DNA from: Octopus vulgaris | Taxonomy: Eukaryota | Reading direction: 5' to 3' | DNA: 64,000 nt | NCBI GenBank assembly: GCA_951406725.2 | Contig: OX597833.1 | Location: 7,192,001-7,256,000, forward strand | Shown here: positions 10,147-36,829 of the stretch, in pieces | Layout: each line of letters starts with the position of its first letter | How positions within the stretch are numbered: the stretch's first letter is position 1 | Notes under the pieces: model-generated | Database searches by the model: none | Told to the model about the DNA's origin: nothing | The model's input: the letters and a program-made list of their open reading frames with translations, nothing else | Position numbers and translations under genes: made by a program

Positions 10147-10229
10147 TTAGTACAATTGTTTCATACTATAACAATTTATTAAAGCTGCAAATATTACAGC
10201 AAATATAATGTCAAGTAATCTTCAGCTAA
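10147..10229 (-). ncRNA. type I hammerhead ribozyme motif, canonical core, weak stem II base
   Basis: Reverse complement reads TTAG CTGAAGA tTACT...AGTAt GAAA C-AATT-G TA CTAA. Confidence 0.65.
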
Positions 10230-10390
10230 TTTCATATAGGTTTTCCAATAATGTAAAGTTCTCAAATCAATTAGTAACATCCTAGAGAGTGCAAATCTAC
10301 CGATAAAGTTGTAGATGTGTTATAGTATGAAACAAATGTACTAAATTACCGGATCCATTCTTATTGCTTATTTTTTGATTATATATATAT

Positions 10391-10660
10391 ATATATCAAA
10401 TAAAATCAAAAACAGAACACAAAGGATGTCGCGGTACACGTGGTTCAAGCTTTATAAATGACCTGTTCTTACATCAGTGTATAATAGATATAAAAGATGG
10501 TTTAAAGCTCTCTTCAGCCGCATACAGCCGTGGCTGAAGAGAGCTTTAAACCATCTTTTATATCTATTATACACTGATGTAAGAACAGGTCGTTTATAAA
10601 GCTTGAAACACGTGTACCGCAACATCCTTTGTGTTCTGTTTTTGATTTTATTTGATATAT
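10391..10660. mobile_element. fold-back element: two 131-bp inverted arms, each a hammerhead-containing unit
   Basis: 10391-10521 vs 10530-10660, 4 mismatches counted by eye, 8-nt spacer, (TA)n on the left. Confidence 0.8.
10530..10620 (+). ncRNA. type I hammerhead ribozyme motif, canonical core
   Basis: Stem I GTGG/CCGC; CTGAAGA (10534-10540); stem II GAGCTTT...AAAGCTT; GAAA (10605-10608); C-ACGT-G; GTA (cleavage predicted after 10616). Mirror copy on - strand at 10431-10521 has GAAA>GAAC. Confidence 0.8.
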
Positions 10661-10756
10661 TCTCTCTCACCTCTGCCACTATCTGGCATATACAGGTGCT
10701 TACACTTATCAAGTATTCACCCTAAATTTGCAGCACCTATATATATATATATATAC

Positions 10757-10975
10757 TGGAGTAAACACATAAATGTGAAACAAGGTGGAAAAAAGAGTAC
10801 TCAAATACCAGTGGTAGAGTAATATGCTTTATTTAAAAGCAGCAGAAAATTCAACAAAACCTGTTACCCTGAGTTTCACGTTCCCATTCGTCGGACAGTT
10901 TTTGCTAGAATCTGTCCGACGAACGGGAACGTGAAACTCAGAGTAACAGGTTTGTTGAATTTTCTGCTGTTCTTA

Positions 10976-10980
<5 letters not shown>
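10757..10980. mobile_element. fold-back element with inverted hammerhead-like units
   Basis: Inverted arms about 10840-10898 / 10912-10969; flanked by (TA)n; its left part resembles 38704-38770. Confidence 0.7.
10912..10949 (+). ncRNA. minimal hammerhead-like motif, variant core CCGACGA
   Basis: CTGT CCGACGA ACG-GGAA-CGT GAAA CT-CAG-AG TA ACAG; mirror copy on - strand at 10861-10898. Confidence 0.65.
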
Positions 10981-36179: not shown

Positions 36180-36219
<40 letters not shown>

Positions 36220-36221
<2 letters not shown>

Positions 36222-36767
36222 AGGGTGAGTCAAAAAGTAATGCCATTTTGTTTAGGACAGGTATAATTACCAATACAAGAACATGTATCATACATCAAAA
36301 TGAAGCTGGTCCTCTGTGGATCACATCCCTACTTCTCAACATAGTCACCGTTTCTCTCAATAGCAATGTTCCACCTTTGAATGAGAGCATGTATCCCTGC
36401 CCCGTAAAATTCTGTTGACTGTTCTTTGAACCACTTCTTCACTACAGTTTTCACTTCCTTGTCACTGGAATAATGTTTGCCTCTCAAACCCTCTTTCATG
36501 GGCCAAAGCGATGATAGTCCAGTTATGAGGAAGTGAAAACTGTAGTGAAGAAGTGGCTCAAAGATCAGTCAACAGAATTTTACGGAGCAGGGATACATGC
36601 TCTCATTTGAAGGTGGAACATTGCTATTGAGAGAAATGGTGACTATGTTGAGAAGTAGGGATGTGATCCACAGAGGACCAGCTTCATTTTGATGTATGAT
36701 ACATGTTCTTGTGTTGGTAATTATACCTGTCCTAAACAAAATGGCATTACTTTTTGACTCACCCTCG
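36220..36767. mobile_element. mariner-derived palindromic MITE with 240-bp arms
   Basis: 36220-36459 / 36528-36767 inverted; arms encode a mariner transposase C-terminus (FGPMKEGLRGKHYSSDKEVKTVVKKW...RWNIAIERNGDYVEK*); TA flanks. Confidence 0.92.

Positions 36768-36829
<62 letters not shown>

Follow-up and report, generated by a model that had tools for sequence, protein, structure and literature searches.

Back-to-back 3′ ends of a Hydra-clade Penelope-like element in Octopus vulgaris, a likely product of twin-primed reverse transcription

The fold-back at 10391–10738 of a 64,000-nucleotide stretch of the Octopus vulgaris genome (contig OX597833.1, positions 7,192,001 to 7,256,000; hereafter the window) is one 5′-truncated insertion of a Penelope-like element (PLE) from the Hydra clade, in which two 3′ ends stand back to back, probably as the outcome of twin target-primed reverse transcription. 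An initial annotation had proposed a twin-primed or inverted integration product of a ribozyme-terminated RNA. The first half of this proposal is supported, since the structure reads as an inverted and likely twin-primed retrotransposition product, but the second is not: both arms cross the predicted ribozyme cut site, with outer ends ~40 and ~120 nt 3′ of it, which indicates that the template RNA was uncut.

Two arms of 131 bp each (10391–10521 and 10530–10660) are separated by 8 nt and mismatched at four positions (10520/10531, 10459/10592, 10443/10608 and 10430/10621), in agreement with the first description. The 270-bp fold-back originally delimited is real but incomplete, because the right arm, on the plus strand, extends from stem I at 10530 to a tailed end at 10738 and thus includes a tail of ~78 nt (10661–10738, plus strand) that is absent from the minus-strand arm. 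In reference numbering, where 0 is the first base of stem I and the predicted cut lies between +86 and +87, this tailed end corresponds to ~+208 and the short end of the left arm (10391–10525, minus strand) to +131. The junction (10522–10529) consists of ATAC and AGCC, so that the 8 nt do separate the arms without being a foreign spacer: ATAC (10522–10525) is the family's own upstream sequence on the minus strand, and AGCC (10526–10529) repeats arm sequence, which we infer to be a short templated repeat of 4–5 nt. Since ATAC is upstream sequence, the left arm starts 4–6 nt upstream of stem I, and only the right arm begins at the stem I edge, as had been suggested for both. Putative (TA)n target tracts, recognized from sequence, border the insertion at 10380–10396, where the tract and the left arm's short end overlap, and at 10738–10756, where the tract is common to the next fold-back; within (TA)n, a target-site duplication would not be legible.

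Each arm carries a type I hammerhead motif. The right-arm candidate (10530–10620, plus strand) has the layout GTGG-CTGAAGA-64 nt stem II-GAAA-CACGTG-TA-CCGC, with stem I GTGG/CCGC, CTGAAGA at 10534–10540, stem II at 10541–10604, GAAA at 10605–10608, the palindrome CACGTG at 10609–10614 and a predicted cut between 10616 and 10617; the canonical core with a palindrome reported at the outset is thus present. The left-arm motif (10431–10521, minus strand, predicted cut between 10435 and 10434) reads GCGG...GAAC...CCGC, and here too the earlier reading of an intact stem I and a GAAA>GAAC change, located at 10443, was correct. Each of the four mismatches between the arms involves a base that is in the minority within the family, two per arm and three at CpG, and GAAC is such a minority variant, with A found at that column in 94 of 97 arms. 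Neither motif matched Rfam at the gathering score. Among contigs from six sequencing runs, none of the listed pieces bridged the junction, a result that is uninformative for a repeat.

By the motifs of the family, both arms are assigned to the 3′ end (pLTR), with its hammerhead, of a PLE from the Hydra clade. The arm is part of a dispersed family, with 1311 first-look candidates in the 2.8-Gb genome, 40 of them scored, and a 28-mer from it has 50 exact genomic matches against 0 for the reversed control; the fold-back is therefore not a chance structure. Family copies share upstream sequence of variable length, and their ends in front of (TA)n fall at two positions, short (~+131) or tailed (~+205), nearly all of these ends passing into a TA-rich microsatellite as in the (TA)n insertions of the Hydra clade. 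Walking upstream led to a copy (L138) in which an RT (YRDD), a CxCX5C linker, GIY-YIG, CxxC/CxH, a 1.7-kb 3′ UTR, the ribozyme and the tail follow one another without interruption. In L185/L240, a ribozyme-tail copy also precedes the ORF and continues into its ATG as a partial tandem, L240 having the arrangement pLTR-ORF-pLTR, and partial tandems with the tail running into the leader or the next ORF also occur in L182, L183 and L189. A sister family retains intact 842-aa frames (copies L176–L179), is 60% identical to the index family over 304 aa of protein and has a ribozyme with the same stem I and with CAUAUG where the index family has CACGUG. It is also young, and a 26-mer from it has 603 exact matches genome-wide.

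A single ORF with an RT and, at the C terminus, GIY-YIG is recognizable by motifs in the pieces from L138 and L240 and in the sister frames. The cysteine motifs are CNCVDAAAC, CQLC and CMH in the index family and CNCRCASEC, CQLC and CIH in the sister family; the DKG->DKT change of the Hydra clade appears as IPADKT in the sister ORFs, the broken index-family copies giving no clean reading there, and the position of the N-terminal RWK motif reads RIRWA in both families. Pfam searches returned GIY-YIG only at E 0.03, below the cut-off, for the ORF pieces, and no RT match above threshold for the intact sister ORF; a PDB sequence search gave no match, and a single-sequence AlphaFold model of the EN part reached a pLDDT of 35 and was not used. 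Compared with the Hydra clade as set out in section 11 of PMC8557442, the octopus families share the CxCX5C linker, the CxxC and CxH around a conserved E/N, the (TA)n target, a type I hammerhead near the 3′ end and, in a by-eye comparison with the supplement of that paper, the DKT, TIKDHK and LYRDD segments. They differ in reading RWA where the clade has RWK, and the octopus element exceeds 3 kb; its linker is Asn-rich, and its 3′ UTR is long and of low complexity. Hydra-1_Obim, whose stem II measures 22 nt as opposed to 64 nt, belongs to a different family. The octopus element family is new, and the fold-back is a minimal example of an already known structure.

Several further features of these copies were observed. 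The Asn-rich linker lies between RT and EN in the index family (L138:2756-3295 and L174) and can be likened to the N-rich inserts of Adineta Penelope (PMC3846280). A different Hydra-type element sits within the 3′ UTR of one index-family copy (L167:7427-9309, minus strand). At C18:78.318 and 78.327 Mb (L002 and L003), one insertion is present twice with common flanks, as a local duplication.

The index fold-back is not isolated, and several PLE ends cluster at this locus. A second fold-back (10757–10978) abuts the tail and belongs to a separate hammerhead family with a short stem II and the core CCGACGA on both arms; one of its arms is ~75 nt longer, giving one short and one long end, and its junction lies just upstream of stem I. 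A third hammerhead motif (10147–10229, minus strand) has a long stem II, stem I TTAG/CTAA and the palindrome CAATTG, and ends in (TA)n. Farther away, a 604-bp fold-back in (TA)n (36192–36795), which we take to be mariner-MITE-like, has identical ends and is symmetric, unlike the PLE pairs.

Taken alone, the locus is an ordinary dead retroelement scar, and a census of back-to-back pairs carries more weight. One short and one tailed outer end were found in 116 of the 118 back-to-back pairs that could be scored in this census. This combination was seen in 36/37 pairs of the index family and its close siblings (35/36 found by rule, plus C21:25559570), in 64/64 sister-family pairs among the matches listed (33 and 31 by orientation) and in 16/16 scorable pairs added by junction searches, one more being broken by another repeat. 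The two exceptions are C2:39943330, where the inverted piece ends at +152 and its partner continues into the leader, and L167/L168, an old long copy with two short ends. The sister sample comprised the first 100 matches of each of two patterns, mostly retrieved, and 118 of its 200 arms were tailed and 81 short among the matches listed, so that about half of the pairs would be mixed by chance if the ends were independent.

The two arms of a pair also share sequence variants. Non-majority bases common to both arms numbered 35 in 18 pairs, against 8.2 expected, and 12 sister pairs with arms ~1–5 kb apart differed at 11 sites, against 47.6 expected, these far pairs being matched by position (within 8 kb) with a single event assumed rather than proved. 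Paired arms thus share rare bases even kilobases apart, which points to one donor. Furthermore, 20 of 39 tight sister-family pairs had arms whose stops lay no more than 15 nt apart (6.3 expected), and so did 12 of 22 outside a hot spot of breaks considered below (2.2 expected), a pattern that would fit run-off of both arms from a single RNA. This tendency is weak in the index family, where the breaks of the two arms were uncorrelated (Spearman 0.11, p 0.53), with 7 of 35 within 25 nt of each other against 3.2 expected. Single-armed copies are common, with 59 of the 131 arms left unpaired by rule; in these, second priming possibly failed, the second arm was lost, or it lies beyond the DNA covered.

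Twin priming has a precedent in L1, where a second primer from the other target strand generates an inverted piece and a repaired junction; there, the internal site used by this second primer varies, and no overlap exists between the pieces. The octopus PLE differs in that the second start site would be fixed and the arms usually overlap. In the origin that we propose, the PLE protein, a dimer by analogy with PAc (Poseidon, Anolis), would nick both strands of the (TA)n tract. One 3′-OH would prime cDNA at a distal RNA start site and yield the tailed end, and the other would prime at a proximal site ~75 nt upstream and yield the short end, with a single uncut RNA, or else two RNAs from one donor, serving as template. 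The two cDNAs would have stopped near stem I, and end repair would have linked them while adding a short templated insert, the arm mismatches arising through later point changes (3/4 at CpG). Against this origin stand the two exceptions to the end rule, the uncorrelated breaks of the index family and the abundance of single-armed copies.

The main alternative to twin priming is that a single strand, either cDNA or antisense RNA, folded back and copied itself, after which the endonuclease trimmed one end and removed the tail. Such self-priming would account for the shared variants and the near-symmetric junctions; in its favor, too, short palindromes occur at several junctions, the index junction carries the 4–5 nt templated repeat, and the tail is attributed to EN-mediated resolution in PMC8557442. 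However, a snap-back copy cannot exceed its template, whereas it is the short-ended arm that extends further 5′ in 22 index-family pairs (the tailed arm in 13, of 36) and in 25 sister-family pairs (the tailed arm in 12, of 39). The arms do not overlap at all in 13 of the 36 index-family pairs, and several of the far pairs combine a short-ended arm covering the whole 330-nt reference with a tailed stub, so that many large one-sided deletions would be required. We consider this explanation unlikely, and the non-overlapping pairs already largely refute it. The end rule, the fact that either arm may be the longer, the shared private bases and the joint stops together favor twin priming over snap-back.

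The reading of the initial annotation, in which both arms begin at stem I because the ribozyme terminates or stalls the template, was weighed against the positions at which arms break. Of the 131 index-family arms, 109 were retained, namely those recovered with downstream patterns and the partners of such arms, leaving out the index pair, a duplicate locus and a single odd arm; 50 of the 109, with 5′ breaks between -100 and +95, entered the break test. The comparison of genomic copies gave no enrichment at stem I, with 4/50 index-family arms broken within 8 nt of it (4.3 expected) and 6/96 sister-family breaks among the matches listed (4.8 expected), so that neither pattern-ascertained sample shows an excess. 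Breaks at the cut site were likewise near expectation in both families (4/50 against 2.6 and 4/96 against 3.7), and cut-site run-off was rejected as their origin. On the other side stand an index-family excess at +70..+92, which covers stem III and the cut site (13/50 against 5.9, p 0.004, in a window picked post hoc), and 15 tight fold-backs genome-wide, from several subfamilies, whose turning point lies no more than 30 nt upstream of stem I. Nine of these belong to the sister family, compared with 1 tight fold-back at the -50 control position of that family and 5 at its +34 control, which indicates at most a weak preference for the stem I edge. The sister-family hot spot lies elsewhere, at -142..-130 (24/96 breaks against 3.7 expected; in L189, 138 nt upstream of stem I). 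Overall, it is very unlikely that the ribozyme set these breaks.

The sister hot spot falls at TCATTC, presumably an initiator-like motif, and suggests a short pLTR transcript. In a check for a cap signature, a G precedes 3 of the 7 sister arms starting exactly at -138 and both of the two index-family arms at -193, where there is a smaller hint of a break pile-up. The index locus is one of many possible junctions: no second genomic copy of its junction was found among the 15 fold-backs at the stem I edge, and each of the 36 junctions listed has its own combination of breaks. Among 35 junctions typed, 20 show microhomology, 2 are blunt and 13 have inserts. Some eight single-armed copies carry, at their 5′ junction, a short inverted internal piece that reaches neither end (e.g., C4:55634398, C19:25282912, C24:10203837 and C25:7971256).

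It is scarcely credible that the feature is a non-autonomous fold-back element, MITE-like or retrozyme-like, moving as a 270–350 bp unit, or an assembly artefact: its shape is MITE-like and a true symmetric fold-back with identical ends does exist at 36192–36795, but the ends here differ by the tail and the junctions differ between copies, which led us to reject a MITE or DNA transposon; the pair is head-to-head with no tandem array in the window or among the 131 arms, as non-LTR retrozymes would form; and the four arm mismatches, the templated junction and more than 100 like structures argue against misassembly.

The hammerhead core is conserved across the family arms. All loci together gave 140 distinct core matches, many of them related copies; stem I is paired 4/4 in 99 of these and a palindromic hexamer is present in 113, whereas 0 of 9 scrambled-core control matches had a paired stem I or a palindromic hexamer. 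The loci hold several PLE-like hammerhead families with a stem II of 42–69 nt, longer than the Hydra motifs given in File S2 of PMC8557442, and with palindromic stem III hexamers that include CACGTG, CATATG, CAATTG and CCTAGG. RNA from 10391–10660 is predicted to fold into a hairpin of -215 kcal/mol, the monomer MFE lacks the three-way hammerhead fold, and the stem III dimer duplex is estimated at -12.3 kcal/mol for the plus arm and -8.9 for the minus arm. A transcript of either strand would thus combine one ribozyme with its antisense in a plain hairpin, so that two ribozymes could not dimerise in cis, and the locus is predicted to be inert with the ribozyme a passenger.

Structures of this kind have been described in other PLEs. 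Complex insertions of EN+ PLEs can carry an inverted 5′-truncated copy at the 5′ end and a 30–40 bp tail, often at one end (PMC8557442); Penelope-13_HM has such an inverted copy, with the ribozyme on both strands (Files S1/S2 of that paper). The octopus feature resembles them in its head-to-head pLTRs, hammerheads on both strands, one-end tail, (TA)n target, 5′ truncation and junction microhomology, and differs in being minimal, with no ORF left, and in its tail of ~75 nt. The tail is published as "optional" or often one-sided, as against the near-invariable short and tailed combination of the octopus census. In Schistosoma PLE remnants, dual min-HHRs lie on opposite strands 100–700 bp apart (PMC4209133); these are likewise type I, with a short stem I and a palindromic stem III suited to dimers, but the octopus pair is closer-spaced and its stem II much longer.

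The closest biochemical parallel is offered by PAc, for which PMC11167929 reports in vitro nicking and extension of both strands, RT starts at two RNA sites bounding the tail, and an uncut RNA template for which ribozyme cleavage is unnecessary. The octopus element shares the two start sites downstream of the ribozyme, the AT-rich target, the use of both strands and the uncut template; it belongs to another clade, and its ATG lies ~280 nt past stem I instead of inside the ribozyme. The start sites of PAc showed no bulk difference between strands, which counts against a twin-site model, and the account of start-site choice in PMC11167929 does not tie it to the two arms of inverted insertions. 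The origin of tandem and inverted PLE structures is called open in PMC8557442. PMC3846280 describes a tail on one of the inverted pLTRs and, for the structures, proposes self-priming on antisense RNA, an explanation ill-suited to these pairs. Neither a strict one-short-one-tailed rule nor twin priming of PLEs is stated in the mainly open-access literature searched.

On balance, we find it more likely than not that PLE integration is intrinsically double-primed and asymmetric in its start sites, with one RNP using the distal site from one target strand and the proximal site from the other on the same uncut RNA, and with both cDNAs often reaching the same RNA 5′ end. The sister family, with its intact 842-aa frames, would be a candidate for assaying a Hydra-clade element in vitro. 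The rule of one short and one tailed end brings the two RT start sites of PAc together with its two-strand nicking in one per-molecule prediction, and, if integration is double-primed in this way, inverted pLTRs and the "optional" tail would be one phenomenon, in which single-armed copies would represent one failed priming.
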